Shown here: one piece after another, positions 10,747 through 62,452 of the stretch | How positions within the stretch are numbered: the first letter of the stretch is position 1 | Layout: each line of letters begins with the position of its first letter | NCBI GenBank assembly: GCA_964542755.1 | Contig: CAZIWL010000001.1 | Span: 48,234-112,233 of the forward strand | Source of the DNA: an uncultured Anaerolineales bacterium | GTDB lineage: Bacteria > Chloroflexota > Anaerolineae > B4-G1 | DNA length: 64,000 nt | Direction of reading: 5' to 3' | Program-made: the position numbers and the translations under genes | The notes under the pieces: generated by a model | Databases searched by the model: none | What the model was told of the DNA's origin: nothing | The model's input: only the letters and a program-made list of their open reading frames with translations

Positions 10747-10760
10747 GGGGCAGTCACACG

Positions 10761-44248: not shown

Positions 44249-45466
44249 ATGGTAACGAAGATCACGGATACGATGGACCTGTCTCAAGCGCTCCAGACGC
44301 TCAAGTGGCTGGATCAGGAGCGGCGCAAGGACAGGGCTATGATTTCGAAGCTGGAGGAGCGTCTACAGGAGCAAGAACGGAGGATCGCCAGAAAGACGGC
44401 CCAGATCGAGGAGCTTCAGGGGGCTCTCACGCGGCTTGAGGGCCGGCTGTCCAAAATCGACGAGTTTGAGCAGATGGTCTCCAATTACAAGAAGGAGATG
44501 ACCTTCCAGCTTGAGCGGCGCGACGAGGCCTCGCACAAAGAGCGCGCGGAGGCCAAGCGGCTCCGCCGACTGGAGCACGAGGCCATGAAGGAGCACCTCA
44601 ATCGCCTGGAGAAGGAGCTCCGCGTCCTGCCACGTTATGATGAGCAGTTGAATGCCCGTCAGGCCGAGGAAGAGCGCATGAGCGGGAAGATCCAGTCGCT
44701 GGAGTCCATAGTGGCCGACCAGGATAAGCGGATCGAGGATGCGACCAACGCTGTGGCCTATCTGGAGGAGCGGCGTCGCTCAGATCATCGTCGCTTGATT
44801 GAAGCTGAGCAGAGTTTTCCCAAGATTCACAAGAAGATCGATACCTTGGCCCAGAAGTTTCCACTTCTCGAGCAGAGCGTGCAGAAGCTGGCCCCCCGCA
44901 TCGACGAGGCTATTCAGATGGCGCGGAAGTGGGAGAAACCCATCGAAGAGCTCCGAGTCTCCGACTTCCAGCGCGAGCAGAAGATGCAGTCCTACGTCGA
45001 TCAGGCCGAGGCGGTGGCGGAGGAGCTGGAGCGCGTTCGGCAGCAGACCCATGGGTTTATCGAGCGTCGAGAACAGGTGAAGCGGGCGCTGAGTGCCCTG
45101 GAGAAATTCCGAACCCGGATCGAACGCCGTCAGGACGAGATGTCGGAGAGACAGCGCATTGCCGAGGAACGCGTCGAGCGCGAGTGGGAGGAGTGGCAGT
45201 CCGAGCGATCGAAGGAGCGTAAGAGGCGGGAGCTGGTCATCGAACAGCGGTGGCAGGCCCAGGAGGAGGTCGATACTGAGCAGGCCGGCCGCCTGGGCGC
45301 TCTCGAGGATCTGACAAAGCTGCAACACGTGCAGTTGGGCTCCCTATGGGAGGTCCAACGCGCTGATGCTAATGCGCTGTTGAGCGCCGCGCAGGATGTC
45401 TACGAGCAGTTGGTCGCCCCGATCGACGACCAGCTGGCGAGCCTACGCGGCGAAGGGCAGGAGTAG
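44249..45466 (+). CDS. coiled-coil protein
   Basis: Heptad-rich, E/R/K/L-rich throughout; RBS GAGGAG. Confidence 0.65.
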   Translation: MVTKITDTMDLSQALQTLKWLDQERRKDRAMISKLEERLQEQERRIARKTAQIEELQGALTRLEGRLSKIDEFEQMVSNYKKEMTFQLERRDEASHKERAEAKRLRRLEHEAMKEHLNRLEKELRVLPRYDEQLNARQAEEERMSGKIQSLESIVADQDKRIEDATNAVAYLEERRRSDHRRLIEAEQSFPKIHKKIDTLAQKFPLLEQSVQKLAPRIDEAIQMARKWEKPIEELRVSDFQREQKMQSYVDQAEAVAEELERVRQQTHGFIERREQVKRALSALEKFRTRIERRQDEMSERQRIAEERVEREWEEWQSERSKERKRRELVIEQRWQAQEEVDTEQAGRLGALEDLTKLQHVQLGSLWEVQRADANALLSAAQDVYEQLVAPIDDQLASLRGEGQE

Positions 45467-45471
45467 CGGCG

Positions 45472-47412
45472 ATGCGAGTCATAGGTACGGCCGGTCACGT
45501 CGACCATGGTAAGTCGGCACTCGTGCTCGCGTTAACGGGGATCGACCCCGACCGTCTACGGGAGGAGAAAGAACGCGGTCTGACCATCGATCTCGGGTTC
45601 GCCTGGTTCACCCTCCCGGGCGGCGAACCCGTTGGGGTGGTTGACGTGCCCGGGCACCGAGATTTCATAGAAAACATGCTGGCCGGCGTCGGCAGTATCG
45701 ATGCCACACTCTTCGTGGTAGCTGCTGATGAGAGCGTCATGCCGCAGACGCGCGAGCACCTGGCAATTCTGGATCTCCTGGAGATCGACACCGGCATCGT
45801 CGTCATCACCAAGACCGACCTGGTGGAGAGCGAGGAATGGCTGGAGTTGGTCGTCGACGATGTGGCCGAGACGTTGACGGGCACGGTACTCGAGGATGCT
45901 CCCGTCGTGCTGACCTCCGCACGGACAGGGCGCGGTCTGGATGAGCTGCTGAACGTTTTGGAACGCATCCTTGCCATCCCGCAACGTCACCCGGATCGTG
46001 GGCGTCCTCGATTACCTATCGATCGCGTCTTTACCGTCAGTGGTTTTGGCACGGTTGTCACGGGCACCCTGATCGACGGCATACTCGAGACCGGGCAGGA
46101 AGTCCGAGTCCAGCCTCAGGGTCTGAAGGCGCGCGTTCGGGGCCTCCAAACGCATAAGGAGAAGATCGATCGTGCGGTGCCCGGCAGCCGCGTGGCGGTC
46201 AACCTGAGTGGCGTGGACATGGATCAGGTCGCCCGGGGGGACGTCGTGGCGTCTGGCGATTGGCTGCAGGGCACGACGCTGGTGGACGTGCGGATGCGCT
46301 ATCTCCCCGACATCCTTTGGCCGGATCTGGGGCAGTTTGCTCAGCGGCCCCTCCGGCACAACACCCGACTTAAGTTCTACACCGGCGCCGCCGAGGTTAT
46401 GGGGCGAGTCAGGCTCCTTGGGCAGAACGCTCTCCTTCCAGAGCAGGTCGGTTGGGTCCAACTCGAACTCCAGGAGCCAATCGCTATGGTGCGCGGCGAT
46501 CACTATATCGTCCGGCTGCCGTCTCCGCCGACCACCGTAGGGGGCGGTATCATTGTCGATCCACAGCCGAGGCACAAGCACCGCCGCTTTCGATCCGTCG
46601 TGGTCGACCGCCTTGAGACGTTGGCTGAGGGAAGCCCCGCGGATATCCTGCTGCAGACACTGGAGCGAGAAGAGGTCGTATCCGTGGAGGACTTGCTGGA
46701 GATGGGCGGGCTTGAGGAGCGTGCCCCCAGCGCCCTGCTTGATCTCCTCGCTGAGGGACGCGCGCTCGTGCTCAACGATGAGCGTCCTGAGGGGATAAGA
46801 CTGACCGAGCTGCCCAGATCTGCTGGAGCCTTGATCGTCAGCCGTGCGAGGTGGTCATCCCTGATCGACCACATCCTTGATGCTCTTTCGTCTTACCACG
46901 AGAAGTTGCCGCTGCGACCGGGAATGCCTCGAGAGGCCCTGCGCAGCCGCCTCCAGCTCGCTCCACGGATCTTCGACGCGGTCGTGGCTCAAGCAGAGCG
47001 TGAAGGACTCATCGTCGACGAGGGAGCGTCGGTGCGGCTTTCGTCCCACACCGTTGAGTTGACGCCTCAGCAAGGGGAACGGGTGAGTGTGCTGCTGGAC
47101 CGTTTCCGACGGGATCCCTACGCCCCTCCCTCGGCCAAGGAGGCCACCGAGATGGTGGGGGAAGACGTCTACCGGGTGCTCATCTCCCGAGAGGACCTGG
47201 TGCAGGTCTCCCCGGATGTCGTCTTCCTGCCAGAGACGTACGATGTCATGGTTACGCGCATCCGGGCTCAGATCGAGCGAGAGGGCAGCGTCACGCTGGC
47301 CGAGGTGCGCGATATGTTCGACTCCAGCCGAAAGTATGCCCAGGCTATGCTGGAGCATCTGGATGAGCAAGGTGTGACGAAACGGATGGGGGACAAGCGA
47401 GTCCTGCGTTGA
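45472..47412 (+). CDS. selB: selenocysteine-specific elongation factor
   Basis: GTPase G1 GHVDHGKS, DxPGH, NKTD; EF-Tu-like domains II/III; C-terminal winged-helix extension; length 646 aa. Confidence 0.85.
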   Translation: MRVIGTAGHVDHGKSALVLALTGIDPDRLREEKERGLTIDLGFAWFTLPGGEPVGVVDVPGHRDFIENMLAGVGSIDATLFVVAADESVMPQTREHLAILDLLEIDTGIVVITKTDLVESEEWLELVVDDVAETLTGTVLEDAPVVLTSARTGRGLDELLNVLERILAIPQRHPDRGRPRLPIDRVFTVSGFGTVVTGTLIDGILETGQEVRVQPQGLKARVRGLQTHKEKIDRAVPGSRVAVNLSGVDMDQVARGDVVASGDWLQGTTLVDVRMRYLPDILWPDLGQFAQRPLRHNTRLKFYTGAAEVMGRVRLLGQNALLPEQVGWVQLELQEPIAMVRGDHYIVRLPSPPTTVGGGIIVDPQPRHKHRRFRSVVVDRLETLAEGSPADILLQTLEREEVVSVEDLLEMGGLEERAPSALLDLLAEGRALVLNDERPEGIRLTELPRSAGALIVSRARWSSLIDHILDALSSYHEKLPLRPGMPREALRSRLQLAPRIFDAVVAQAEREGLIVDEGASVRLSSHTVELTPQQGERVSVLLDRFRRDPYAPPSAKEATEMVGEDVYRVLISREDLVQVSPDVVFLPETYDVMVTRIRAQIEREGSVTLAEVRDMFDSSRKYAQAMLEHLDEQGVTKRMGDKRVLR

Positions 47413-47431: not shown

Positions 47432-48058
47432 GTGAGCCCGATCAAGCTGCTGGGTATCTCTGGGAGCCCACGACGGGGGGCGACGGCCTACGCGGTCCAG
47501 GAAGCGCTGGCCTATGCCGAAACCCTTGGCGACGTGGAGACGGAGTTTGTCTCGGTGCGCGGCAAAGAGATCAAGTTCTGCATCCACTGCGACTACTGTG
47601 TGCGGAAGAAGGAGGGCTGCGTCTTCGAAGATGATGTCGCCAAGATGTATCCCAGCATGGAGGAGGCCGACGCGTGGGTCCTCGGCACTCCTGTCTATCA
47701 GGGAACCATGTCGGGACAGCTGAAAGCTGTCCTTGATCGTTGTCGAGCCATTGTCGCCAGGGACATCGACGCGCTCAAGGACAAAGTTGGGGTGGGGATA
47801 GCCACGGGTGGCGATCGAGTTGGGGGCCAGGAGCCGGCCATCACGGCCATCCACGCCTTCTACCTGGCGAACAAGATGATCCCCATCAGTGGAGGGCCAT
47901 TCGGCGCAAATCTGGGCGGCACCATCTGGTCGCGCGACAAGAAGGGTGCGGGTGCCGAGGCTGACGAGGTCGGGATGGAGAGCGTCCGGCGGTCAGTCAA
48001 TCGTCTTGTTGAGGTGACCTCGACGATCAAGGGCTCGAAGTTGCATGACGATTCTTGA
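47432..48058 (+). CDS. NADPH-dependent FMN reductase / iron-sulfur flavoprotein-like
   Basis: Flavodoxin-like fold LLGISGSPRRG and a Cys cluster CIHCDYC. Confidence 0.7.
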   Translation: MSPIKLLGISGSPRRGATAYAVQEALAYAETLGDVETEFVSVRGKEIKFCIHCDYCVRKKEGCVFEDDVAKMYPSMEEADAWVLGTPVYQGTMSGQLKAVLDRCRAIVARDIDALKDKVGVGIATGGDRVGGQEPAITAIHAFYLANKMIPISGGPFGANLGGTIWSRDKKGAGAEADEVGMESVRRSVNRLVEVTSTIKGSKLHDDS

Positions 48059-48083
48059 CAGATGCCATCGTACAGTGTATAAT
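48055..48083 (+). promoter_or_regulatory. perfect consensus sigma70 promoter TTGACA-17-TATAAT (leader A)
   Basis: Exact hexamers with a 17-nt spacer; the -35 overlaps the TGA stop of the reductase gene. Confidence 0.6.
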
Positions 48084-48089
48084 AGAAAG

Positions 48090-48195
48090 CATAATTAGAA
48101 TAATCTGAGCTACCCTACGGATGGGATTGTGAAGCTGCCAAATATCCGTCACGACGCAGCTTAACTGCCGAATCATTTATGATTCGGCGTTTTTG
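48090..48195 (+). ncRNA. candidate structured leader or sRNA A of about 105 nt (conserved motif plus terminator), unclassified
   Basis: Predicted TSS, a motif GCTACCCTACGGATGGGATTGTGAAGCTGCC at 48109..48139 that is shared with leader B, and a terminator. Confidence 0.5.
48167..48194 (+). terminator. intrinsic terminator GCCGAATCA-TTTA-TGATTCGGC plus GTTTTT
   Basis: 9-bp perfect stem, 4-nt loop, U-tract. Confidence 0.8.
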
Positions 48196-48795
48196 GTCTT
48201 AGGGGCCAACCGGTCCGCCTAGGGGGCCAGCCTAGTAGCACATCTTCCACAACCGGGGCACCACGCGCCCCGCCGCGATAGAAGGTCAGCTCGTACCAGA
48301 ATCGTGGTACAGTCTGCTTGAGAGTTGATGCCGTTACGATGCTGTTGAGCCGTAGCCAGCAACTTGCCTTCCGGGTATATTGTCGATGCCAAAAAGGCGA
48401 TCTCGCGCTTTCTTGAGTCATTGGTGGGCTTCACCCGCAATAGGCTTCGTTTCGGCGCGATCGACCCGAAACCCGTTCTGTGACGCCGTGGCCAGTGGGG
48501 CCGTGAGGCCTACTCTCTAAACGCCGTCTATGCTCATACGAGTACTGGATGACCATCGGCTGTTCTTGTTGCACACCGTTAGCGGTCTACCGGCCTTCTC
48601 TGGCAATCGCCTGATCGCGCGCACCAACCTCTCTCAAGGTAGACGATACATTTACCGGCGGGGGGCTGTGCATCGCTGCGGGGTCCGGCAGAAGAAAGGG
48701 GGTGACGACTGAACCATTAGCCTGGATGTTGTATGCGTCTCCTACAGATAGGACAACACAGACGGATAGATCAGATTCCAAGGAGGAATACTCAG

Positions 48796-50328
48796 ATGTC
48801 GTTGTACGAGAAGATGGTGAACGAGGCCGTTGGCGCCGCAAAGTCGGTTCTTGGCGTCATAAGGGAGAAGCGTGGCGGGACCTTCAAGATCGCCGACGCA
48901 AAGCCATACGTCGATGCCGTCAACGCGATGGAGCCCGGTGACGGGCAGTCCAAAGAGGTCTTCGACCTGCACGTCGAGTCGGTGAATACCCACTACAACA
49001 CATTGATGGAGCTCACCGACACCATTCGCCCCGAAGACGACCCCTTCGTCGAGCACTACCAGACTCCGCCCATCCTGGAGATCCTCTACGAGGAGGACTC
49101 AGAGTTCAAGGACTCGATGTGGCAGTTCATCGACGCGGTCGCCGAGAACAAGTCCTTGATTGGGCTCGATGCGGTTCGTCGCTACGGCGGCATGTACGGC
49201 ATGACCTGTGTGGTCGACTTTGCCTTCTCTGTCGGATCGGTACCCAATACAGTCAACCGTATCCTCCGGGAGATGGACATTCCGAAGGAGCACAAGCAGA
49301 CAATCCTGGCTTCGAAGTCATGGGGGATGAACACCTCATACGGCTTTGGCGCAGCTTTCCGGGGGGCACTCGAGTCCGGCAAGACGGCAGCCGAGGCAGA
49401 GCAGGCCGAGGTTGACCAGATTCAGCACATCTACCGCGACCCGGTGGAGGCCCAGGCTGAACTGATGGACACCCACAACCTGGGTGGGCACGGTGGACAT
49501 ACCTCGTTCGACACCCGCAAGTACATGGCCCAGTACAAGGAGGCCATGCGACCTCACGTGGTGGCTGCTATGGAGGCGGGCGTGCATCCTGCCAACATCA
49601 CAGCCGTGCCCGCCTACTGCGTGGGTGACATTGGTCATCACATCGCCCAGTCCGCGTACAATATGTTCAAGGACGACATGTCCTTCGGCATCTACGAAGC
49701 AGTGATGGGCGTCTTCGAGAATACCATGCGCCGTGGCGTCGAGCAGGACGCCTATGGCAGCGAGTGGGACGTTCTGGCCGTGGCGACTGGTGCGCCCGCC
49801 TGTGCCGCCGCGTACATCCTCTGGCTGGACAGCTTCACTGTCCCCATGGTGATCGATCTGTTCAACAAACGGTTCCACAACTACTGCTCGATGCACCCGG
49901 ACCGCGGTGAGGCGGACGAGCTGCACAATGTCGACACCATCGACATCCTGATGCGCGGTGAGTCGATCCTAGAGCCGAAGCCGCGTGGTGCCGGTCGCAA
50001 GGTCAAGGGCATCGAGGTCGATCTCAGCCCGGTTGAAAACCACGAGGTCGTCATGAATCCGCAGCGTTACACCTATCCGGCGTGCGCCATCACCCAGCGC
50101 TTTGCGGCGTTGATGCATATGGCTGACTTCCCGTGCTACATGACGCCCGAGTGCGTAACGGCCACGTTGATGACCAATGCCGTGGCGCTCAATCCGGACC
50201 GCCCCGGCGCCCCGGTCAGGGGATGCAAGGACTGCGCTATCTGCACGCTGAACAAGCGCAACGCGCCTATGGCGACGGGCCGTCTGACGGGTGATCAGGG
50301 TTATTGCGAGTGGCACCTGGCGGTCTAG
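48796..50328 (+). CDS. uncharacterised 510-aa protein, paralogous to the 609-aa protein at 51767; C-terminal Cys-rich segment
   Basis: RBS AAGGAGG. A shared segment AAMEAGVHPANITAVPAY matches [19 protein letters not shown] in the paralog. No known family recognised. Confidence 0.75.
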   Translation: MSLYEKMVNEAVGAAKSVLGVIREKRGGTFKIADAKPYVDAVNAMEPGDGQSKEVFDLHVESVNTHYNTLMELTDTIRPEDDPFVEHYQTPPILEILYEEDSEFKDSMWQFIDAVAENKSLIGLDAVRRYGGMYGMTCVVDFAFSVGSVPNTVNRILREMDIPKEHKQTILASKSWGMNTSYGFGAAFRGALESGKTAAEAEQAEVDQIQHIYRDPVEAQAELMDTHNLGGHGGHTSFDTRKYMAQYKEAMRPHVVAAMEAGVHPANITAVPAYCVGDIGHHIAQSAYNMFKDDMSFGIYEAVMGVFENTMRRGVEQDAYGSEWDVLAVATGAPACAAAYILWLDSFTVPMVIDLFNKRFHNYCSMHPDRGEADELHNVDTIDILMRGESILEPKPRGAGRKVKGIEVDLSPVENHEVVMNPQRYTYPACAITQRFAALMHMADFPCYMTPECVTATLMTNAVALNPDRPGAPVRGCKDCAICTLNKRNAPMATGRLTGDQGYCEWHLAV

Positions 50329-50385
50329 TCGAGCGGTGTGTCTAACGTCGTAGATCAGTAGCCCTGCAGCATCGTATCCGTAAAG

Positions 50386-50426
50386 GAGCTCAGGGAGGGA
50401 GGACTGAATCCGCTCTCCCTGAGCTC
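50386..50426 (+). other. 12-bp perfect inverted repeat hairpin (GAGCTCAGGGAG/CTCCCTGAGCTC) after the 531-aa gene
   Basis: Seen in the sequence; it lacks a clean U-tract. Confidence 0.5.
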
Positions 50427-50450
50427 TTCATTATCCTAGAGAGGGACGCT

Positions 50451-50666
50451 ATGTCGCCGTGCATCAGCTGTGTGATATCGAGCCAAGACGAGTACGGTCA
50501 CGACAGGACCTGGCAGTCCAAATGGATAGACACACGCTGCCCAGTCTGCGGCACAGGGTTTGAGGTTGGCGATCACGTGCTAGTCGATGAGGATACGATA
50601 ACTGCGTATCATGTCGAGTGCTACGATGGTTCCGGGGCCGCGCTTGAGGAAGGCGTCGTCATCTAG
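50451..50666 (+). CDS. small zinc-ribbon-like Cys protein (71 aa)
   Basis: CxxC...CxxC spacing and an RBS GAGGG. Small-ORF caveat applies. Confidence 0.45.
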   Translation: MSPCISCVISSQDEYGHDRTWQSKWIDTRCPVCGTGFEVGDHVLVDEDTITAYHVECYDGSGAALEEGVVI

Positions 50667-50777
50667 GGCCGCGCTGGATAGATCCGGTGGGACACCGCCA
50701 CGAGAGCCAAGTGAAGCGCCGGTGATCGACCATGGGGCTCGTCGGTCGAGTTGTCTCGTCCTTATCAGGGAGCTAGC

Positions 50778-51344
50778 ATGTCCGAAAAGGTGAAGGTGGC
50801 GTGGGGAATCACGGGCGCCGGAGACTACCTCAGAGAGTCCCTGGACGCAATGAGAGACCTGACGCGGGACTTCGGCGTCGAGGTTACCGTTCTGCTCTCC
50901 ACGAACGGGGAGCTGGTGGTGAAATGGTACGATCTGTGGGATGACCTGAATGCGAGTTTCGACAAGGTTAGGTCAGAAAAGGGCCCCAACCTGCCGTTCT
51001 TGGCGGGGCCTCTTCAACTCGGCCATTATGCCTTCCTCTTTGTGTCGCCGGCGACAGGGAACACTGTGGCGAAGATCGCGTATGGAATAGCGGACAGCCT
51101 TGTCACCAACTGTGTCGCGCAGACGGTCAAGGGGGGCACGCCAGTCTTTGTCTATCCGGTTGATCAGGTGGCGGGCAGCCAGGAGACGGAAGGCCCTCGC
51201 GGGGAGAGAATCACCATCAGCACCAGACAGATCGATCTGGACAACGTCGAGAAACTCAAGGCCATGCCCGGCGTTGAGGTTCTGGGGCATCCGGGCCAGA
51301 TAAGCTCGGTAGTGAAGGACACGCTGTTTTCCGAGGTGTCCTGA
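50778..51344 (+). CDS. flavoprotein of the HFCD family (UbiX/PPCDC/AfpA-like)
   Basis: VAWGITGAGDY flavin-binding start and a ..PATGNTVAKIAYGIADSLVT.. motif; start at the internal ATG with RBS AGGGAG. Confidence 0.7.
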   Translation: MSEKVKVAWGITGAGDYLRESLDAMRDLTRDFGVEVTVLLSTNGELVVKWYDLWDDLNASFDKVRSEKGPNLPFLAGPLQLGHYAFLFVSPATGNTVAKIAYGIADSLVTNCVAQTVKGGTPVFVYPVDQVAGSQETEGPRGERITISTRQIDLDNVEKLKAMPGVEVLGHPGQISSVVKDTLFSEVS

Positions 51345-51421
51345 GCTCCCTCGGGACTGTCCAAGGGACCCGCGGCACGGACCTGTCGCCGATCCAGTCT
51401 TAGCCCACACTATGTGCAATC

Positions 51422-51450
51422 TTGACATAGTCTGCCTGCTTGTGTATAAT
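51422..51450 (+). promoter_or_regulatory. perfect consensus sigma70 promoter TTGACA-17-TATAAT (leader B)
   Basis: Exact hexamers; shares the GTGTATAATAG context with promoter A. Confidence 0.6.
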
Positions 51451-51456
51451 AGCTGA

Positions 51457-51637
51457 CACAAATCGTTTCGAGCCAGCTGAGTGCCGCATCTATCTTCACA
51501 GTCGTTGGCTTCCAACCGAATATCGCGAACCCGCGAATGGTGCTACCCTGCGGATGGGACTGCGAGGTTGTGAATGATCTGCCCTAGTACAACCGAGCTG
51601 CCGAGACTTTGGTCTCTGTGCAGCTCGGTTCTTTTTT
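51457..51637 (+). ncRNA. candidate structured leader or sRNA B (conserved motif plus terminator), paralog of A
   Basis: Motif GCTACCCTGCGGATGGGACTGCGAGGTTG at 51542..51570; a GGTTGT/ACAACC hairpin; a terminator; and 130 nt to the GTG start of the 609-aa gene. Confidence 0.5.
51593..51637 (+). terminator. intrinsic terminator CCGAGCTGC...GCAGCTCGG plus TTCTTTTTTT
   Basis: 9-bp outer stem plus 5-bp inner stem, with a long U-tract. Confidence 0.8.
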
Positions 51638-51766
51638 TGGGAGGTGATACCAGGACATACAGGTGGTCGTGGGGCGTTCGGCAGATAGAAGGATCGTTGT
51701 TGACGAGCATCCCTCGCTATGAGGGATCTTGGGGGCCACATATTCAGACTATCAGGAGGTACTGAC

Positions 51767-53548
51767 GTGGAGAAGGAAATCCTTGCAACAATCGCAGCTA
51801 TGACGTCCAACATCGAGTACACGACGAGTGACCGGATCGAGGCGCTTACCAAAGGTCACGGCATGCTCAACATCGCGGCACTCTGCGCAGAGAACGCGAT
51901 GACGTGGGAGGTCCTCCAGGGGCGAGATATCTCCCTGACGGATGCGAATATAGAGAAACTCCCGCTGGATCACGTCATTGAGGCTGGGGTCAACGCCGCC
52001 ATGGAGGCGGGCGCTTTCCCGGCCAACGCCGCTGTGATTACGGCGACGCTGCTCCTCATCGCCGGCACCTCCCCCCGCGCAGGTGTTCCCGCCGGCAACC
52101 GAAAGCTCGGCGCTCTGGCACGCATGAAGGCTGGAGCGGGCCGGACCGGCGTGGTGTCGATTCCGACATCGAAGCTTACCAACAAGCTCTCTGGCTTCGC
52201 GGCCGTCCAGGGCCTCTATAACGCCATGATGGACGGTAATGTGGTCCGCATCGACGGCGCCCACGTCCCCGCGTTCGTCGCCGGCGGCGCGCCTATGGGT
52301 CACAGTGTCCTCGGCGAGGATATGGTCTACCCGGACATCTGCCTGAAGGGTGGTAAGGCTGCCGTTGACGCCATGATGAAAGCCTACCGGGGGGCCGGCA
52401 TCAGTCCCAGCCCGATCCAGTGCGCTATCCTGGCCGCCGCTGCCGTTCTCGAGGTTGTCAACCCCGATGGTATGATCGGCGCTGAGTACGGCGACTTCTT
52501 CGTGCAGGGGACCGGGTACCTGGCCGGCAAGGGTGCTGCCGACGCCGCCGGTCTCCCCGAGAAGCTGCACTTGCGGGGCACGGGCGACGAGTACGACACG
52601 GCGAGTCTGGTTGGCGGAATGGGTATGATCCTCAAGGATGTCGGAGCCCCCTCGGTGATCGGCATGATGACGGTCAATGAGATCCTGGCCGCCTTCGCTG
52701 AAGGTCCGATGATCGGCGCCGGCTTCGGTGGCGGTCCGGTCAACCCCCCGTTGGCTCACCTGGCTGCCGACGGCGTCATCGCGATGAAGGCCCTGATGAA
52801 CAACAAGGGCGACGTTGAGGCCGCGGCCGATATGCTTCACGAAGTCAAGATGACCCAGTGGATCGACCCCGAGATTGCCGCTTTCTCCACAAACACCATC
52901 ACCCGGAAGGCGGAGCAGGTCCGCCGTGGTCCTGTGACCGAGACGATCATCAAGGCCACCGACGGGATCCGGACCAACGCTCTGCACCGCCGCGCCAAGT
53001 TCGCTTACGACCAGCTGAACGAGGGTAAGGACCTGAAAGAGATCTGCGGTGCGCTCGACCAGGCACGCAAGGCGCGGGTGGAGGAGAACGCCGGCAAGAT
53101 CCTCAGCGGCTTCTTCGGCAAGGACATCACCATCACATTCGACAAGCTCGAGGGTGGTGCCCGCCGCGACCATCCCTTCGCACAGGCCTTCTGGGGCTTC
53201 GACGCTGACATCGATGCGACGGTCACCGTCGACGGCGAGGTATTCGAGTTCGAGGGCCTCAGCCACACGGTCATCCCGGACGCTGTCTTGAATCAGAAGT
53301 CCGAGCTGTCGTTGCCGATCACGGTCGCTGCCGCGGTGGCCCAGGAGCTGATGTACGTGGGCTGCTGCACGATCGACGCCGTGGTCCCCGCTGTGGTGGC
53401 TGCCGCTATGGGTACGTACACCTGGAAGGACGCCGGTAAGAAGGCTGAGAAGGGCGCCAATATCACCTGCTCCATCCCTGGAGCGAAGAACACGGCCCGC
53501 GAGGCTGCCCGGCTGGCAATTCGGATCTTGCAGGACCTGGAGGGCTAG
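51767..53548 (+). CDS. uncharacterised 593-aa Gly/Ala-rich protein, paralog of 48796..50328
   Basis: GTG start with AGGAGG 7 nt upstream. Head of a run of overlapping genes to the window end. The 666-aa antisense ORF is rejected. Confidence 0.7.
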
Positions 53549-53552
53549 GCTT

Positions 53553-53623
53553 CCTGGTCCCAACACGTAGGGACCAGGCCATGGATCAGGTAGAGGGCAG
53601 GTGAGAAAGCTCTCTACCTGATC
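53553..53623 (+). other. two consecutive perfect hairpins (9-bp CCTGGTCCC/GGGACCAGG and 12-bp GATCAGGTAGAG/CTCTACCTGATC) in an intercistronic gap
   Basis: Seen in the sequence; no U-tracts. Confidence 0.5.
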
Positions 53624-53650
53624 TCCTCTGTCAGGGAAGGGGCCTCTGTC

Positions 53651-54169
53651 ATGCTGATTCTGGTAAATGTAGATGACGTCCCGGGCGAACTCCTCCCACA
53701 CGTCATCAGCGGTCTGATGGCGCGTGGAGCCGAGAACGTCCACGCCGTTCAATCGATTACCAAGAAGGGGCGGCTGGGCTATATGATCTTCGTCGACGCA
53801 CCATCCGAGAAGCTGAACGAGCTCGGCGGATTCCTCGCGTCCGAGGTAGGAACGATCGGCATGCGGGTGCTTGAGTCACGTCACGTTTGTTTCGACTATC
53901 GGGTGCGGAGCATGCGCCTGACGGCGGGCGAAGCCAGCGGGCAAACCCAAGCCATCATTCGCGTGAAGGAGGTCTACGACGACGAGCGGGTCGTTTCGGT
54001 CAAAGCTGAGTACGAGGACTTGCGGTCCGCCCTTGACCGATTTGAGGGTTCGGGTGTGAACACCTCGCTCGTTGCACTCAAGCGCCTTGTGGAAGAGGCG
54101 GCGTTGGGCCAGGCTCAGATAGATCATTCGGGCATTCGGATCGAGAGGGTTAGGGAGGTTTCCACGTGA
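53651..54169 (+). CDS. standalone LarC C-terminal-domain-like protein (DUF111 family, nucleotide-binding half)
   Basis: LILVNVDDVPGE...TKKGRLG...EVGTIGMRV matches the LETNIDDMSGE...MKKNRPG...TTTLGVR pattern of the nickel-pincer cofactor protein LarC. Confidence 0.55.
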   Translation: MLILVNVDDVPGELLPHVISGLMARGAENVHAVQSITKKGRLGYMIFVDAPSEKLNELGGFLASEVGTIGMRVLESRHVCFDYRVRSMRLTAGEASGQTQAIIRVKEVYDDERVVSVKAEYEDLRSALDRFEGSGVNTSLVALKRLVEEAALGQAQIDHSGIRIERVREVST

Positions 54170-55026
54170 AGAAAATTCTGGTGCAACTCGACAACGACGA
54201 ATCCGCGAGCGTCTTCGATACGGTAGCGGCCTACGATTCTGGCGTTGACAGTGTCCTCCAATATGCCAGTGTGGCACCGGAGGACGTGCAGAACCTGGTC
54301 TACGGGGCGATTTTCACTCGTGGACCGCAGGACTTGAAGAATTCCGCCGTGTTCATCGGGGGATCGGATGTCGCGGTTGGAGAGAAGATGCTGAAGATCG
54401 CTCAAGATTCCTTCATCGGGCCTCTGAAGGTCTCGGTGATGCTCGATGCCAACGGCTGCAATACTACAGCCGCTGCAGCCGTCGCTAAGATGCTCTCGTC
54501 GGCAGACCTCTCGGGGGAAAAAGTGGTCGTTCTGGCGGGAACGGGTCCCGTTGGGATACGGGCTGCAGCTCTCTTCGCCCAGGAGGGCGCGGAGGTTACA
54601 CTGACGTCACGGGATCAAGCGCGAGCGGAGGAGGCTGCGGCTTCCGTCAGCGCCCGGTTTGATGTGAAGGTTGCGGGTGTGGCAGCTGCGGAAGAAGAGG
54701 ACCTTCGTGCAGCCCTTGAGGGGGCACGCGGAGTACTCTCAGCCGGTGCCGCTGGTGTTACCCTGCTGCCGGAATCGGTCTGGATTGAGCACCCAACCCT
54801 TCAAGTGCTTGGCGACGTGAATGCGGTTCCACCCTTGGGCATAGAAGGCATCAAAGTCCACTGGAAGGCCAAGGAGAAGCATGGCAAGATCATCTACGGT
54901 GCCATCGGTATAGGCGACTTCAAGATGAAGGTCCATCATGCCAGTGTTGCTCGCCTCTTCGAGCAGAACGACTTGGTCCTGGATGCCGAAGAGGTGTACG
55001 CGACAGCGAAAGAACTGTCGAGCTAG
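54166..55026 (+). CDS. mtdA: NAD(P)-dependent methylene-tetrahydromethanopterin/tetrahydrofolate dehydrogenase
   Basis: GTGA overlap with the upstream gene and RBS AGGGAGG. About 286 aa. Motifs FDTVAAYD, DANGCNTTAAAAV and VVLAGTGPVG resemble Methylobacterium MtdA. Confidence 0.75.
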   Translation: MKKILVQLDNDESASVFDTVAAYDSGVDSVLQYASVAPEDVQNLVYGAIFTRGPQDLKNSAVFIGGSDVAVGEKMLKIAQDSFIGPLKVSVMLDANGCNTTAAAAVAKMLSSADLSGEKVVVLAGTGPVGIRAAALFAQEGAEVTLTSRDQARAEEAAASVSARFDVKVAGVAAAEEEDLRAALEGARGVLSAGAAGVTLLPESVWIEHPTLQVLGDVNAVPPLGIEGIKVHWKAKEKHGKIIYGAIGIGDFKMKVHHASVARLFEQNDLVLDAEEVYATAKELSS

Positions 55027-56210
55027 TGCGCGTTCTCATCGTCGGCCTTAGCACTCGAGCGATCGCCCAGTCCGCGTACGAGGCCGGCCATGACATCGTG
55101 ACGCTCGACTACTTTGGAGACAGCGACCAGCGAGCTCTCGTAGAGAACCACTCCCTGCTCCGCGACTACGATCTGGCATACGGCCCTGAAGCGTTGGTCC
55201 GGGTAGGCCGGGAGCTGGATGCTCAAGCCGTCGTCTACACCGCGGGCTTGGAGAATGATCCTTGGGCGGTTGCGGACCTGGCGGAGGGCCGAACACTTCT
55301 CGGAAACGAGCCCGATGTCCTCTGCCAGGTCCGCAACTGGGATGTCCTACGGGGATTCTTCCGGGACGCAGGGATCGGCTTTGCAGAGACACTTCTGCCG
55401 GGCGAGGAAGGATTGGCAGAGCACTGTGAGCGCTGGGTTCGCAAGCCGGTTCGGAGCGGAGGCGGTCGCGACGTTGACTACTGGGACGGCAGCGCGCTAG
55501 CCTGTCATCAGATTCTGCAGGCCTACGTCGATGGCGTTCCGGCGTCAGCTGCCTTTGTCGCCGACGGCGAGGATAGCCTCGTTATCGGCGTGACCGAGCA
55601 GTTGATCGGGCGTGAGGAGCTGGGAGCCGCCGGTTTCGCCTGGTGCGGCAATATGGTACCCTTGGAGCTTGCAAAGGCTGACCGGGAGATTGTGTGGCAC
55701 GACATCGCCACTGCCGTCTCGCGCTTGACGAAGCACTTCGGCCTACGGGGAGTGAACGGTGTGGACTTCGTCCTTCACCGGTGTGCTGATGGGCGTCCGC
55801 AGCCGGTTGTCGTGGAGGTTAACCCTCGCTACACGGCCTCGATGGAGCTTTTCGAATCGGCGTACGACGAGAGCATTTTCTCTCTCCACGTTGAGGCTGT
55901 GAAGGGTCATCTGCCAACCAGCCAGGATCAAGCACGCTGGAAACGGACGGATGGTTACCTCGGCAAGGCAATCGTCTTCGCAAAGCGGCCCGTGACCATG
56001 CCCGACACCGGGGGCTGGTTTGGCCTGGGCAGGCACGACGTGCCGCATACTGGGGAGCGGATAGAGGCCGGACATCCCGTATGCACGGTGTTCGCGCGGG
56101 GTGACGGACGTCGTGGTTGTTGGAGCGGTCTCCTGGAGGCGGCTGAAAGTGTACGTCGCGAAATTGGAGACCAGATTGGAGGAGTGACTTGGACGCAACG
56201 TTCAAGCTAG
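55026..56210 (+). CDS. ATP-grasp ligase (MptN- or MfnD-like, H4MPT or methanofuran biosynthesis)
   Basis: ATP-grasp fold in a C1-cofactor context; GTG start overlapping the mtdA stop. Confidence 0.55.
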   Translation: MRVLIVGLSTRAIAQSAYEAGHDIVTLDYFGDSDQRALVENHSLLRDYDLAYGPEALVRVGRELDAQAVVYTAGLENDPWAVADLAEGRTLLGNEPDVLCQVRNWDVLRGFFRDAGIGFAETLLPGEEGLAEHCERWVRKPVRSGGGRDVDYWDGSALACHQILQAYVDGVPASAAFVADGEDSLVIGVTEQLIGREELGAAGFAWCGNMVPLELAKADREIVWHDIATAVSRLTKHFGLRGVNGVDFVLHRCADGRPQPVVVEVNPRYTASMELFESAYDESIFSLHVEAVKGHLPTSQDQARWKRTDGYLGKAIVFAKRPVTMPDTGGWFGLGRHDVPHTGERIEAGHPVCTVFARGDGRRGCWSGLLEAAESVRREIGDQIGGVTWTQRSS

Positions 56211-56551
56211 TAACTGGGCGAACGCGCAGCCAGGCTGATGGGCTGCACAAAGGCAAGGGCACCGAAGCCTATCGACAGGCGACGGAACGCGTGGAGATGA
56301 ATCAGGGCGACATGGGTGCCTTGGGCCTCAACGAGGGGTCTACCGTGCATCTACGGACGGATGCTGGGAGCGTCGATGTGATGGTTTACCAGGGCGAGCT
56401 CCCGTCCGGTCTCCTGTTCATGCCGCTGGGTCCTGCGGCAAACCGTCTCATCGGCGTCGAGACGGACGCCACGGGCACCCCCCGCTACAAGGATCTTCCT
56501 GTCATCGTAGAGCGGTCGGTCCGGGAAGGAGAAGCGGCAAGCGATGGCTAA
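56189..56551 (+). CDS. formylmethanofuran dehydrogenase subunit D-like protein (small beta-barrel subunit)
   Basis: TTG start with GGAGGAG RBS; KLVTGRT..Q N-terminus typical of FwdD/FmdD. Confidence 0.65.
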   Translation: MDATFKLVTGRTRSQADGLHKGKGTEAYRQATERVEMNQGDMGALGLNEGSTVHLRTDAGSVDVMVYQGELPSGLLFMPLGPAANRLIGVETDATGTPRYKDLPVIVERSVREGEAASDG

Positions 56552-57818
56552 GGTAGTGGAGAACGCCGTCTGCACGTTCTGCGGTTGTCTATGTGACGAC
56601 ATCACTGTGGAGGTCGAGGGCAACGCCGTAAGCCAGGTCCGTCGCACGTGCGCCAATGGCCGAGGCGTCTTCATGCACTACGACCCTGCGCCCCGACAGC
56701 CAACTGTCCGCGGCGAGGAGGTCACCTGGGGCGAGGCAGTCGAGGAGGCGGCGACAATCCTCTCGGAGGCCCATAGTCCCCTGATCTATGGGCTCAGTTC
56801 GACGGCTAGCGAAGCCCAGCGGAAGTGCGTTGCGCTGGCCGACTACCTGGGCGCCGTGATCGACACAACGTCTTCGGTCTGTCACGGCCCTACCGGACTG
56901 GCGATGCAGGCCGTGGGTGAACCCACTTGCACCCTGGGCGAGGTGCGGAACCGCGCAGACCTGCTCGTCTTCTGGGGCTGCAATCCGGCGGCCGCCCACA
57001 TGCGCCACTTCAACCGGTACTCGGTTACCGCCCGCGGGCGACTTACACCGAACGGGAAGAGGGACCGGACGACCGTGGTGGTCGATGTCCGCCCGACGGC
57101 CAGCACGCGGATAGCCGATCAGTTCCTCCAAGTTGAGCTTGGAAGTGACTTTGAGGTGCTGACTACCCTGTTGGCCTTCGTCCAGGGCAAGGGGGACAGG
57201 CTCACGGCGGAGGAGGTCGGTGGAGTGCCCATGGCGGAGCTGGAAGCACTGGCCGAGCACATGATGAGCTGCCGGTTCGGGGTGGCCTTCATGGGTATGG
57301 GGTTGACCCACACCCCGGGCCAGGACTTGACCGTGAGCGAGTTGTTCAAGCTGGTTGCAGCCCTGAACGACCACACCCGATTCTCCGTGATTCCGATGCG
57401 CGGACATGGCAATGTCGCCGGTGCGGACCAGGTGATGAGCTGGCAGTGCGGTTATCCGTTTGCGGTCAATTTCGCCCGAGGGTATCCGGTTTATGGGCCC
57501 GGGGAGTTCACGGCGGTCGACGTGCTCGCCCGCCAGGAGGCGGACGCCGCTTTGATTCTGGCCTCTGATCCCGTTGCCCATTTCCCACGCAGGGCGGCTG
57601 ATGAATTGGGGAAGATACCGGTCGTGGTCCTAGACCCGATGCCGAGTCTGACGACTGAGATAGCCTCGGTTGTCTTCCCCACGGCGTGCTACGGGGTAGA
57701 GGCGAAGGGTACGGCCTACCGCATGGACGGCGTACCCATTCAGCTACGGGCGGTGCTGCCGACCACCCGTCCGACCGATGAGGAGATCCTGGATCAGATT
57801 ACTGAGGCGGTGAGATGA
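56544..57818 (+). CDS. fhcB: formyltransferase/hydrolase complex subunit B (FwdB homolog)
   Basis: CTFCGCLCDD N-terminal motif and a molybdopterin-oxidoreductase-like fold. Confidence 0.8.
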   Translation: MAKVVENAVCTFCGCLCDDITVEVEGNAVSQVRRTCANGRGVFMHYDPAPRQPTVRGEEVTWGEAVEEAATILSEAHSPLIYGLSSTASEAQRKCVALADYLGAVIDTTSSVCHGPTGLAMQAVGEPTCTLGEVRNRADLLVFWGCNPAAAHMRHFNRYSVTARGRLTPNGKRDRTTVVVDVRPTASTRIADQFLQVELGSDFEVLTTLLAFVQGKGDRLTAEEVGGVPMAELEALAEHMMSCRFGVAFMGMGLTHTPGQDLTVSELFKLVAALNDHTRFSVIPMRGHGNVAGADQVMSWQCGYPFAVNFARGYPVYGPGEFTAVDVLARQEADAALILASDPVAHFPRRAADELGKIPVVVLDPMPSLTTEIASVVFPTACYGVEAKGTAYRMDGVPIQLRAVLPTTRPTDEEILDQITEAVR

Positions 57819-59455
57819 TGTTGGGGATTTTGAACGGGCGCGTTTACGATCCGATCCACGAGGTTGATGGGGAGGTGCAGGATGTGTGGATGGACGACGG
57901 GAAAATCGTCCCTCCCCCCGCAACCGAGGAGGCGAGACGCCAGGCCAGGACCATCGACGCTACAGGCCTCGTCGTTATGGCCGGAGGCGTGGACGTTCAC
58001 AGCCACATCGCGGGCGCCAAGGTCAATGCCGGCCGAAAGTTCCGGCCGGAGGACCACCGCGACCACGTCCGCGCGCGCACCCCTCTGACGCGCTCTGGCG
58101 CGGGCTACACCACACCGACCACGGCGATGATGGGCTACCTCTACGCCGAGATGGGTTACACGACCGTGATGGAGGCCGCGACGGCCCCACTGGTGGCGCG
58201 TCACACTCATGAGGAGCTGGAGGACATACCGATTCTGGACACCGGGGCCTATATCACCATGGGCAACAATCACTTCATCATGGAGTCCATACGCCGCGGG
58301 GAACGGGAGAAGGCTAGGGACTACGTGGCATGGCTGTTGCGGGCGACGAAGGGATATGCGATCAAGATCGTCAATCCCGGCGGTGTCGAGAACTGGAAGT
58401 GGCGCGGCAACGTCAAGGAACTGGACGACGAGGTGATTGGTTTCGAGGTCACCCCGCGTCAGATTCTGGAGACGCTCGCCTGGGTCAACGATGAGCTAGG
58501 CCTGCCGCACGTCCCGCATATCCACGGCCTCAATCTGGGGCAGGGTGGCAACGCCCGCACGACGGTCGAGACGATCAGGGCCCTCGACGGGCGCCCGTGC
58601 CACTTCTGCCATCTGCAGTTTTTGAGCTATGAGGGAGAACCCGATACGTTGCCCCGCTCGGGGGCGGTACAGGTGGCTCAAGCGGTCAACGAGCATAGGA
58701 ACGTTACGATCGACGTGGGACAGGTCGTCTTTGGTTCTGCCACCACAATGACGTCCGACGGCCCTCTCCAGTACCATCTCCACCGGCTCACGGGGGACAA
58801 GTGGCTCAACGATGATGTGGAGGCCGAGACCGGCGGTGGCCTCGTGCCAATGGAGTACGCGCCGAGGAACGCCGCCAACGCAACCCAGTGGGCCACAGGC
58901 CTGGAGTTGTTCCTGCTCATTGATGATCCCTGGCGGGTCTTCCTGACCACCGATCATCCCAACGCCGGTCCTTTCTTCCGTTATCCTTACGTCATCAAGC
59001 TGCTCATGGATCGTCAGGCACGCGCAGAAGCTTTCGAAGAGATCAGCCCCAGGGTCCGGAAGCGCTCGACTCTCGGGCAGCTGGAGCGAGAGTATTCGCT
59101 CTATGAGATCGCCATCATTACTCGGGCTGGTACTGCGCGCGCCCTGGGTCTGGACAACAAGGGGCACCTGGGCGTCGGTGCGGACGCTGATGTGGCTGTC
59201 TATGTCGACTTGGATGATCGGGAGGAGATGTTTGCGTCGCCGCGGTACGTGATCAAGGATGGGGAGATCGTCGTCCAGGATGGCAAGGTGGTGCGCGAGC
59301 AGCAGGGCCGAACCCTCTACGTTGAGCCTGCGTACGATCGCGGCATAGAGAAAGAGCTGCGGGATTACTTCCGGGACTACTACACCATCCAGTTCGATAA
59401 CTACCCGGTGTCACCTGACTATGTGCCCCGCGGGGAGGTCGTCGCGTGTCGCTAG
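57815..59455 (+). CDS. fhcA: formyltransferase/hydrolase complex subunit A (FwdA homolog, amidohydrolase)
   Basis: ATGA overlap; amidohydrolase metal motifs GGVDVHSHI...HIHGLNLGQGG. Confidence 0.8.
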   Translation: MMLGILNGRVYDPIHEVDGEVQDVWMDDGKIVPPPATEEARRQARTIDATGLVVMAGGVDVHSHIAGAKVNAGRKFRPEDHRDHVRARTPLTRSGAGYTTPTTAMMGYLYAEMGYTTVMEAATAPLVARHTHEELEDIPILDTGAYITMGNNHFIMESIRRGEREKARDYVAWLLRATKGYAIKIVNPGGVENWKWRGNVKELDDEVIGFEVTPRQILETLAWVNDELGLPHVPHIHGLNLGQGGNARTTVETIRALDGRPCHFCHLQFLSYEGEPDTLPRSGAVQVAQAVNEHRNVTIDVGQVVFGSATTMTSDGPLQYHLHRLTGDKWLNDDVEAETGGGLVPMEYAPRNAANATQWATGLELFLLIDDPWRVFLTTDHPNAGPFFRYPYVIKLLMDRQARAEAFEEISPRVRKRSTLGQLEREYSLYEIAIITRAGTARALGLDNKGHLGVGADADVAVYVDLDDREEMFASPRYVIKDGEIVVQDGKVVREQQGRTLYVEPAYDRGIEKELRDYFRDYYTIQFDNYPVSPDYVPRGEVVACR

Positions 59456-59491
59456 ATAACCAGGGGGTCGCGAGTGTGCTGGTGAGCACGG

Positions 59492-60862: not shown

Positions 60863-61422
60863 TCATCGAGACCTTGTTCGCAACGTTTAGCGACGCGGGA
60901 GAGCCCAACTTCGCACCAATGGGTGTGGTGTGGGGAGAGGACGAGGTGACCGTGCGGCCCTTTCGCGATACTACCACGTACCGAAACCTCGTCAGCACCT
61001 CGTGCGGCGTGGCGAATCTCACCGACGATGTCCTGCTCTTTGCCCAAGCCGCGCTCGAGGACGTCGAGCCTCCCTGGCGTCCCGCTTCTCACGTCAGAGG
61101 CGCCGTGCTCCGCAGTGCATGCGCGTGGAGAGAGCTGGAGGTCATCGATGAGAGAGGCCAGGGCACGCGGGCAGACATCAGATGCCGTGTCGTGGGGCGA
61201 GGGAACCAGCGCGAGTTCGTGGGTTTCAGTCGAGCGCGGAGCGCCGTGATCGAGGCAGCCATCCTCGCTACTAGACTCCATCTGTACCCACGGAAGGACG
61301 TTGAAGGGGCCCTCGAGCGGTATGATGATGTCGTAGCCAAGACTGGCGGGGAACGAGAACACGAGGCTATGCGGTATCTGCAGAGTTACGTGACAAGGTG
61401 GTACGGTGAGAATAAGGATTGA
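60859..61422 (+). CDS. DUF447-family protein (H4MPT-linked)
   Basis: Overlapping start; size and context match the DUF447 proteins found in methylotroph H4MPT clusters. Confidence 0.5.
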   Translation: MIIETLFATFSDAGEPNFAPMGVVWGEDEVTVRPFRDTTTYRNLVSTSCGVANLTDDVLLFAQAALEDVEPPWRPASHVRGAVLRSACAWRELEVIDERGQGTRADIRCRVVGRGNQREFVGFSRARSAVIEAAILATRLHLYPRKDVEGALERYDDVVAKTGGEREHEAMRYLQSYVTRWYGENKD

Positions 61423-62374: not shown

Positions 62375-62452
62375 TAGTACTCATCGTGTATGGTGTGCCC
62401 GTCGAGTTCAATGGGCAAAGAGGCCGTAGACTGGGATTGGAGATGGAGTAGG

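Follow-up and report, generated by a model that had tools for sequence, protein, structure and literature searches.

A 64,000-nucleotide stretch of DNA from an uncultured Anaerolineales bacterium (GenBank assembly GCA_964542755.1, contig CAZIWL010000001.1, positions 48,234 to 112,233 of the forward strand; hereafter the window) carries, ahead of a set of genes for tetrahydromethanopterin (H4MPT)- and methanofuran-linked one-carbon (C1) metabolism, two large genes that an earlier note on this DNA had described as paralogous and as matching no recognisable family. Both open reading frames (ORFs) are real: the first (48796-50328, + strand) encodes 510 residues from an ATG preceded by AAGGAGGA, and the second (51767-53548, + strand) encodes 593 residues, the length also of its homologues, from a GTG preceded by AGGAGG; we refer to the latter product as P593. 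We find that P593 represents an unnamed protein family without known fold relative, and that its constant genomic partner is a stand-alone protein resembling the C-terminal domain (LarC2) of the nickel-pincer cofactor protein LarC, not the 510-residue neighbour. Genomic context and conserved lysines and histidines suggest, with chances that we judge to be about even, that P593 is the protein part of an enzyme that works with the nickel-pincer nucleotide (NPN/NPMN) cofactor, a functional analogue of LarA on an unrelated, mostly helical fold.

Sequence searches with P593 against Pfam, NCBIfam and the PDB gave zero matches, so that the reported lack of a family held for this protein, while the 510-residue protein turned out to belong to DUF2193. 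Only 168 sequences in a library of 1.84 billion representatives matched P593, with some 16 full-length clusters at 35-52% identity; its 120 closest homologues (73-94% identity) came from metagenome bins of Chloroflexota and Thermoleophilia and were all annotated 'hypothetical'. The AlphaFold2 model computed from an alignment of 33 family members (alignment A2) is of high confidence (pLDDT 92.7, pTM 0.92) and mostly helical, and the protein is predicted to be soluble, hydropathy speaking against a membrane protein. P593 lacks the Lar_N/DUF2088 domain (PF09861) and the alpha/beta fold that together mark the LarA superfamily, and it showed neither a match to the aldo/keto reductase domain PF00248 nor a TIM-barrel prediction. 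Near-invariant positions in alignment A2 are N111-R112-K113, H179, E184-D185, E229, H268, K290-D291, E312, H331, E369, K381 and R466; K113, K290, K381, H179, H268 and H331 are each at least 90% conserved in the alignment columns, and the family alignment contains no conserved cysteine. A role as a substitute for LarE was rejected because P593 co-occurs with LarE, which stands alongside it in five loci, and because of the missing cysteine. A 666-residue ORF on the opposite strand (51752-53752, - strand), which covers the whole P593 gene, was treated as an artefact of GC-rich DNA; conserved homologues of the sense ORF number in the hundreds. Eight related loci showed a comparable antisense frame when their ORFs were clustered.

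In a scan of one genome per species, P593 was found in 319 species. Its bacterial hosts include Anaerolineae, Thermoleophilia, Desulfobacterota (among them Dethiosulfatarculus sandiegensis), Halanaerobiales, Synergistota, Clostridia (Gracilibacter, Syntrophaceticus) and Sporomusa acidovorans, and its methanogen hosts Methanosarcina, Methanolobus, Methanococcoides, Methanohalobium and Methanobacterium.

The gene next to P593 in the window encodes a 172-residue protein (53651-54169, + strand) that matches the Pfam Ni_insertion profile of LarC (PF01969) at positions 248-363 of 375 (E 3e-21). This is the C-terminal third of the profile only: the protein has the C-terminal, CTP-binding LarC2 domain and lacks the N-terminal LarC1 domain with its histidine-rich nickel site. 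Its PDB matches are MK0293 (3c19) and Moorella thermoacetica LarC (12bi). The earlier note had listed a LarC-like gene here without following it up. When the ORFs of 91 P593 loci were clustered and then recounted with hidden Markov models, 81 loci had a LarC C-terminal-like gene on the P593 strand and within 900 nt of it, and three others had one in the lar cluster to which P593 belongs, which makes 84 of the 84 informative loci; the other seven contigs end less than 300 nt past the P593 gene. The adjacency extends to family members as distant as 38-43% identity and spans bacteria and methanogens alike. In Methanosarcinales the cluster reads P593, small LarC2-like gene, LarB, full-length LarC, the small protein being 31-34% identical to residues ~250-400 of full LarC. 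As these archaea also carry a full-length LarC, the small LarC2-like protein is an extra paralogue, and we rejected, as an account valid for all loci, that it is simply the C-terminal half of a split LarC. Where LarC1 is encoded separately, as in Gracilibacter, Sporomusa and Thermoleophilia, the small protein may double as the LarC half.

P593 is also associated with further lar genes. LarB was present in 37 P593 loci and LarE in five, so that P593 shows the genomic association with larB, larC and larE that is expected of enzymes of the NPN/NPMN-dependent class. The Thermoleophilia cluster additionally holds NikR and CbiM/Q/O nickel/cobalt uptake genes, and in Sporomusa acidovorans (DSM 3132, NZ_CP155571.1, locus L051) P593-LarC2 occurs with LarE, LarB and LarC1 beside a GntR regulator, a major facilitator superfamily transporter and an enolase-superfamily enzyme, a sugar-acid context. 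In a Desulfobacteraceae locus (L033) and a Thermovirgaceae locus (L047), lar genes, P593/LarC2 and H4MPT genes form one contiguous block. Two further observations concern the archaeal loci. In Methanobacterium (L062-L070, L077-L083, L087), P593-LarC2 lies among metal-handling genes, as judged by eye from cluster representatives: a FecCD-type ABC importer with binding protein and ATPase, a cation diffusion facilitator, an Mrp/NBP35-like ATPase and a metallo-beta-lactamase-fold protein. Inside a Methanosarcina P593-LarC2-...-LarB-LarC cluster (L090, 13461-14660), an aldo/keto reductase with a C-terminal 4Fe-4S dicluster domain is encoded, with members of the same cluster (c52) in L071, L072 and L084; this protein could be a second nickel-pincer client, of the aldo/keto reductase type like NphT (PMC13524815).

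LarB, LarE and LarC make the nickel-pincer nucleotide cofactor, and LarC2 is the domain that binds CTP and cytidylylates (PMC13510736). The combination of larBCE with no larA is found in about 15% of genomes (PMC11796402), and cofactor clients other than LarA are therefore expected; the known users are LarA, a family with the aldo/keto reductase fold and an ornithine cyclodeaminase only, and both LarA and NphT need a lysine to tether NPN and a histidine to ligate nickel (PMC13524815). P593 resembles the LarA superfamily, i.e. lactate racemase and other NPN-dependent 2-hydroxyacid racemases and epimerases, in standing beside larB/larC/larE, in its sporadic occurrence among anaerobes and archaea, in having subfamilies in different substrate contexts, and in conserving lysines and histidines that could serve tethering and nickel binding. 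Akin to NphT and the other NPMN-dependent enzymes with the aldo/keto reductase fold (Nat Chem 2026, PMC13524815), it is a candidate scaffold distinct from LarA that was found through lar adjacency and from which hydride transfer would be expected; unlike them, it lacks the PF00248 match and the TIM-barrel prediction and is about twice their size.

The tie of P593 to the C1 genes is conserved, but it belongs to a subfamily. Of the genes for Mtd, ATP-grasp, FhcD, FhcB, FhcA and Ftr, two or more lay within 10 kb of P593 in 23 of 80 species-level loci, all 23 being bacterial (Chloroflexota, Desulfobacterota, Bacillota, Synergistota), and 19 of them fell among the 41 homologues that are at least 60% identical to the P593 of the window. 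The order of the H4MPT/methanofuran genes that follow P593 in the window recurs in L014-L017, L021, L035, L042, L047 and L138. More broadly, at least four bacterial phyla have H4MPT/methanofuran C1 operons that begin with DUF2193, with P593 or with both, and DUF2193 can occupy the same first slot independently of P593 (L091, L092). The C1 link proposed in the earlier note was thus borne out by conserved co-occurrence, by the common slot and by the RNA described below. No fae gene was seen in the H4MPT clusters headed by P593 or DUF2193. Compared with Fae, the usual entry gene of bacterial H4MPT clusters, P593 and DUF2193 are alike in their position at the entry of the Mtd-Mch-Ftr-Fhc route and unlike in being dissimilar in sequence, much larger and apparently dependent on a cofactor, a trait that points to redox chemistry more than to a plain condensation. 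A role of P593 in core H4MPT biosynthesis is unlikely, since it is present in only some methanogens and occurs in a sugar-acid context in Sporomusa; by analogy with LarA, the family probably has several substrates.

Both large genes are preceded by their own leader, as had been claimed, and the two leaders share a promoter form, an 18-mer and a terminator beyond chance. Each contains a sigma-70-type promoter with TTGACA, a 17-nt spacer and TATAAT, an invariant GCUACCC...CGGAUGGGA core and a terminator hairpin; the extended -10 GTGTATAATAG is common to both, and the 18-mer GCTACCCTRCGGATGGGA occurs twice in the window against 0.16 expected (in none of 100 shuffles). In leader 1 the promoter (48055-48083, + strand; TTGACA 48055-48060, TATAAT 48078-48083, as read from the sequence) is followed by the RNA motif (48108-48170, + strand; covariance model R1, 69.5 bits, E 3e-15), a candidate riboswitch aptamer 5' of the DUF2193 operon, and by an intrinsic terminator (48167-48194, + strand) made of GCCGAATCA/TGATTCGGC and a T run, identified from sequence and RNA fold. 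Leader 2, 5' of the P593 and H4MPT operon, has the promoter at 51422-51450 (+ strand; TTGACA 51422-51427, TATAAT 51445-51450, likewise read from the sequence), the motif at 51541-51603 (+ strand; 80.3 bits, E 4e-18) and the intrinsic terminator at 51591-51638 (+ strand; RNA fold -45.3 kcal/mol, z -4.1). Between the terminator of leader 1 and the DUF2193 start codon lie ~600 nt (48195-48795) without a convincing ORF; in other loci this gap holds a gene for a 75-residue DUF2180 protein or is of similar length.

Fifteen related loci carry the motif ahead of P593 or DUF2193, and its alignment yields an H-type pseudoknot with interleaved helices a (GCGGAU/AUCCGC) and b (GGCUGU/ACAGCC). Covariance model R1 together with a pattern scan of metagenome contigs gave 62 strong matches, 56 of them distinct. 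Base pairing holds in 93.9% of cells, compared with 21-49% in controls with slid partners; all six pairs of helix b covary, eight pairs overall show compensatory changes, and the end pair of the pseudoknot, which lies outside the search model, is GC in 35, AU in 11 and GU in 6 copies. Wherever genes could be identified downstream (58 copies), the motif leads DUF2193, P593 or H4MPT genes, in three arrangements: (i) the DUF2193 operon, (DUF2180)-DUF2193-MIP-...-FMN reductase-AfpA-GHMP-Mtd-ATP-grasp-Fhc; (ii) the P593 operon, P593-LarC2-Mtd-ATP-grasp-FhcDBA; and (iii), rarely, Mtd, GHMP or FhcD directly downstream. Ahead of DUF2193 operons the motif also occurs in tandem, as two or three copies 113-191 nt apart (L123 at 941/1132, L127 at 492/623, L133 at 3763/3894, L142 at 11487/11600/11713). 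A further 34 weak matches to the covariance model (below 36 bits, from the pattern scan) were set aside as mostly chance, lying inside coding regions with unrelated genes downstream. In addition, a near-identical 55-nt sequence resembling the 5' half of the motif (CGCTACCCAGCGGATGGGACTGCGCGATTAATGATCC...) was noted in L102, L109, L139, L148, L150, L156, L158 and L170, contigs with JGI-style and other accession names in which none of DUF2193, P593 and the H4MPT genes follows it; the sequence is a variant of the motif or else a repeat.

Scanned against Rfam 15 (4227 families), the whole window gave no match at gathering score, and the leaders gave none even at E 10; our literature search found no paper on a riboswitch for H4MPT genes. 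The RNA is a well-supported, previously undescribed riboswitch candidate, with ligand binding predicted. It resembles the H-type pseudoknot transcriptional riboswitches (fluoride, ZTP, preQ1, guanidine-III) in being compact (~63 nt) and pseudoknotted with invariant joining nucleotides, in the overlap of the terminator with its 3' end, in its occasional tandem copies and in its narrow, coherent regulon, and it differs in that this regulon (DUF2193, P593, H4MPT C1 genes) and the Rfam result match no described class. In both leaders the conserved 3' GCUGCC of the motif is also the 5' arm of the terminator, and in leader 2 this arm takes four bases of the 3' strand of helix b as well. As the 3' end of the motif doubles as terminator arm, ligand-stabilised folding should prevent termination, and the RNA is probably an ON switch upon ligand binding.

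The 510-residue protein (48796-50328) is a full-length member of PF09959 (DUF2193; 749.3 bits against a cut-off of 25, E 2e-225), its residues 2-488 aligning to profile positions 2-487 of 498, and it is all-alpha. C477, C480 and C504 near its C terminus are invariant in it and in 22 bacterial homologues. The DUF2193 protein of Methanococcus voltae (MvoDUF2193) binds one [4Fe-4S] cluster per subunit through the C-terminal cysteines Cys477, Cys480 and Cys493 and shifts between tetramer and monomer with cluster loading; 91% of methanogen homologues adjoin a gene for a MIP-type channel, and the predicted partners are FMN-binding and rubredoxin-like proteins (2025, PMC12375889). The window protein is like MvoDUF2193 in its full length, in its conserved C-terminal cysteines, through which cluster binding is predicted, and in the recurrence of its partners, namely a MIP channel in relatives, FMN-binding proteins and a small Cys-rich protein. 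It is unlike MvoDUF2193 in being bacterial and in having the third cysteine in a longer loop (CX2C...C504 compared with the archaeal CX2CX6DX2(H/C)X2C); moreover, the bacterial proteins head H4MPT C1 operons behind a riboswitch-like RNA, neither of which has been described for the archaeal ones. The family has ~190 invariant positions among sequences from several phyla, with numerous His, Asp, Glu and Cys residues remote from the C-terminal tail among them. In a Caldiserica genome (L091) DUF2193 directly precedes Mtd-ATP-grasp-FhcDBA-Ftr-FhcC-Mch, and another bacterial locus (L092) has the order DUF2180-DUF2193-MIP-FMN reductase-AfpA-GHMP-DUF447-Mtd-....

Taken together, the region contains two modules that are distinct from each other; each stands behind a copy of the riboswitch-like RNA, and both would feed or serve the downstream H4MPT/methanofuran C1 oxidation operon. 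They are module A (48796-51344), comprising DUF2193, a zinc-ribbon protein and an AfpA-type flavoprotein, with an FMN reductase just upstream, and module B (51767-54169), comprising P593 and the stand-alone LarC2-like protein. P593 would receive its nickel-pincer cofactor from the LarB, LarE and LarC pathway, and the dedicated LarC2 paralogue may act in the last cytidylylation or in the hand-over step that loads the cofactor. In NPN enzymes a hydride passes reversibly to C4 of the pyridinium ring, and for this reason a hydride-transfer step at the pathway entry would be the most likely job of P593 in this lineage. Its place would be ahead of Mtd, where it would generate or transform a C1 unit at the formaldehyde/methylene-H4MPT level; it might oxidise methanol or formaldehyde, or it might be the nickel-pincer equivalent of the methylene-, methenyl- or methyl-H4MPT oxidoreductases. 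DUF2193 and the flavoproteins could be a non-homologous iron-sulfur/flavin alternative or complement at the same entry point, so that either or both would head these operons, and the leader RNA would turn transcription on with its ligand bound, candidate ligands being an H4MPT derivative or a formaldehyde adduct. That all of this holds at once, with P593 as a new-fold NPN carrier performing C1 hydride transfer, the RNA sensing a pathway metabolite and DUF2193 acting as the iron-sulfur/flavin analogue of the step, we consider conceivable and rather doubtful. Our literature search found no paper joining nickel-pincer enzymes to H4MPT, and lar genes in Methanosarcina only in reviews.

Several points weigh against this interpretation. 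The conserved lysines and histidines of P593 are alignment positions, and one shared pocket for them is assumed; a lar neighbourhood can equally mark a maturation factor; and larB, larE and LarC1 sequences occur nowhere in the window, their presence elsewhere in the genome being assumed. In methanogens and Sporomusa, P593 does not lie beside H4MPT genes, and the C1 role may therefore hold for the subfamily only. Condensing formaldehyde with H4MPT needs no redox cofactor. For DUF2193, finally, the published hypothesis is that of an iron-sulfur carrier or sensor, not an enzyme (PMC12375889).

Four other explanations were weighed, each of which fits fewer of the observations than P593 as an NPN-using enzyme. 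P593 might be an accessory of cofactor synthesis or delivery, be it a scaffold, a storage protein or carrier, or a co-worker of LarC2 on a variant (e.g. cytidine-dinucleotide) cofactor. Such a role would suit its invariable position by a LarC-domain gene, often in larB/larC clusters without another obvious client, the Methanosarcinales cluster consisting of just P593-LarC2-LarB-LarC; it would also suit the CTP-binding, cytidylylating nature of LarC2 (PMC13510736) and the natural existence of a dinucleotide form of the cofactor, NPAD (PMC13524815). We nevertheless consider it unlikely: LarB, LarE and LarC suffice for NPN in L. plantarum, cyanobacteria and E. coli (PMC11796402), most lar-positive organisms have no P593, and a 593-residue protein that is 73-94% identical among close homologues, keeps about a dozen invariant charged residues and heads catabolic operons in several phyla looks like a catalyst.

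Less likely again is a pair independent of nickel that modifies or salvages H4MPT cofactors, in which the LarC2-like protein would activate, at the expense of CTP, a substrate or a precursor of H4MPT or methanofuran and leave the subsequent step to P593. A stand-alone LarC2-like fold does occur alone in Methanopyrus (PDB 3c19), and the pair in the window is surrounded by ATP-grasp, GHMP kinase, DUF447, DUF6513+pterin-binding and AfpA genes, with no larB, larE or LarC1 nearby. Elsewhere, however, the family keeps the company of LarB (37 loci) and LarE (5 loci), with NikR and nickel/cobalt uptake genes adjacent in Thermoleophilia; in Sporomusa the pair accompanies a full lar set and sugar-acid genes, with no H4MPT genes in the 21.8-kb locus examined, and many organisms with H4MPT lack P593.

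DUF2193 could also be an iron-sulfur carrier or a redox or iron sensor that owes its place in the operon to regulation or to cluster supply, in which case P593 might likewise be structural. The cluster binding and the tetramer-monomer shift of MvoDUF2193 (PMC12375889) speak for this, as does the retention of the three family cysteines, but the ~190 invariant positions, including many His, Asp, Glu and Cys away from the C-terminal tail, the constant pairing with MIP channel, FMN reductase and AfpA, and the first position in a catabolic operon under a metabolite-type RNA switch make it improbable. Least probable, and in our view very poorly placed, is the earlier proposal of one new C1-feeding enzyme, with DUF2193 and P593 as its two subunits or as diverged paralogues: they are neighbours in Anaerolineae (the window, L012, L013, L018, L094, L117, L121, L154), Thermoleophilia (L031, L032) and a deltaproteobacterium (L037), three phyla in all, and share one regulatory RNA and a short AAxEAGxxPAN patch. 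By sequence and profile comparison, however, they are not paralogues, and they form no obligate pair: BLASTP finds a 22-residue match only (11 identities, E 0.037 in a single comparison), hhalign of alignment A2 against an alignment of 22 DUF2193 sequences (A3) gives 0.6% probability over 28 columns (E 0.099), DUF2193 lies within 10 kb of P593 in just 8 of 91 loci, each alone heads otherwise identical operons (L091, L092 and L133 versus L014-L017 and L138), and in the window each has its own promoter, leader and terminator.

The neighbours named in the earlier note were recovered, along with some further genes. Upstream of leader 1, a gene at 47432-48058 (+ strand) encodes an NADPH-dependent flavoprotein of the FMN reductase family (Pfam FMN_red, E 1e-32), a recurrent member of the DUF2193 module that follows DUF2193/MIP in L092 and in many operons led by the RNA motif. 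DUF2193 is followed by a 71-residue Cys-rich zinc-ribbon/RING-like protein (50451-50666, + strand; sub-threshold Prok-RING_1 match, E 3.5e-6), whose gene is kept after DUF2193 in L012, L013, L094, L121 and L154; homology to DUF2180 was rejected, there being no similarity. Next comes an AfpA-type HFCD flavoprotein (50778-51344, + strand; TIGR02699, 208.9 bits, above the curated cut-off of 192.45), which scores 138.5, under the cut-off, against TIGR02700 (dihydromethanopterin reductase). Afp is among the H4MPT-linked genes listed in PMC5020050, and the flavoprotein is probably an Afp/DmrB-type reductase of H4MPT biosynthesis.

That the 593-residue gene heads a run of Mtd-like, Fhc-like and H4MPT genes was confirmed by Pfam. 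All on the + strand, these are Mtd-like (54166-55026), ATP-grasp (55026-56210), FhcD-like (56189-56551), FhcB-like (56544-57818), FhcA-like (57815-59455), DUF6513+pterin-binding (59492-60862), DUF447 (60859-61422), GHMP kinase (61406-62374) and Ftr (62390-63346). The ORFs of this run (54166-63346) overlap or abut and were taken as co-transcribed with P593. An FhcC-like (GXGXG) gene, cut by the window end (63510-64000, + strand), was identified by tblastn with the representative of cluster c25 (50% identity, E 4e-45). Neither Fae nor Mch was found among the window ORFs scanned, in agreement with the earlier reading; by synteny with related loci, Mch would lie just past the window end.

Further upstream, SelB, the selenocysteine-specific elongation factor, is encoded at 45472-47412 (+ strand), ahead of the FMN reductase; in the same region (44249-47412, + strand) the 405-residue ORF before SelB, where selA might be expected, has no credible Pfam match. 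Eight consecutive large ORFs of 593-850 residues occupy positions 8662-25659 (+ strand), seven of the eight with PMT_2/PMT-type domains (GT-C glycosyltransferase, ArnT-like), an unusual tandem array of paralogues that is followed by a DUF11 repeat surface protein (26007-28253). A metagenome contig (Ga0180432_10000944, L154) encodes DUF2193, the zinc-ribbon protein, AfpA and P593 with amino-acid sequences 100% identical to those of the window and carries both RNA copies; the window probably derives from this population or from one very near it. The nearest named relatives, noted together with L154 and L094, are uncultured Anaerolineae/Anaerolineales at 84% identity.

P593 is a concrete candidate for the cofactor user in the ~15% of genomes that make the nickel-pincer cofactor without LarA (PMC11796402), and if the proposed role is true it would also explain the presence of larBCE without larA in many methanogens and anaerobes. 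The family has cultured hosts, among them Sporomusa acidovorans DSM 3132, Dethiosulfatarculus sandiegensis and strains of Methanolobus and Methanosarcina. That P593 leads H4MPT/methanofuran operons in four bacterial phyla bears on how C1 units enter the pathway in anaerobes without Fae, and DUF2193, an orphan family, gains a metabolic context. Knowledge of the ligand of the leader RNA would reveal which metabolite the two modules are built around.

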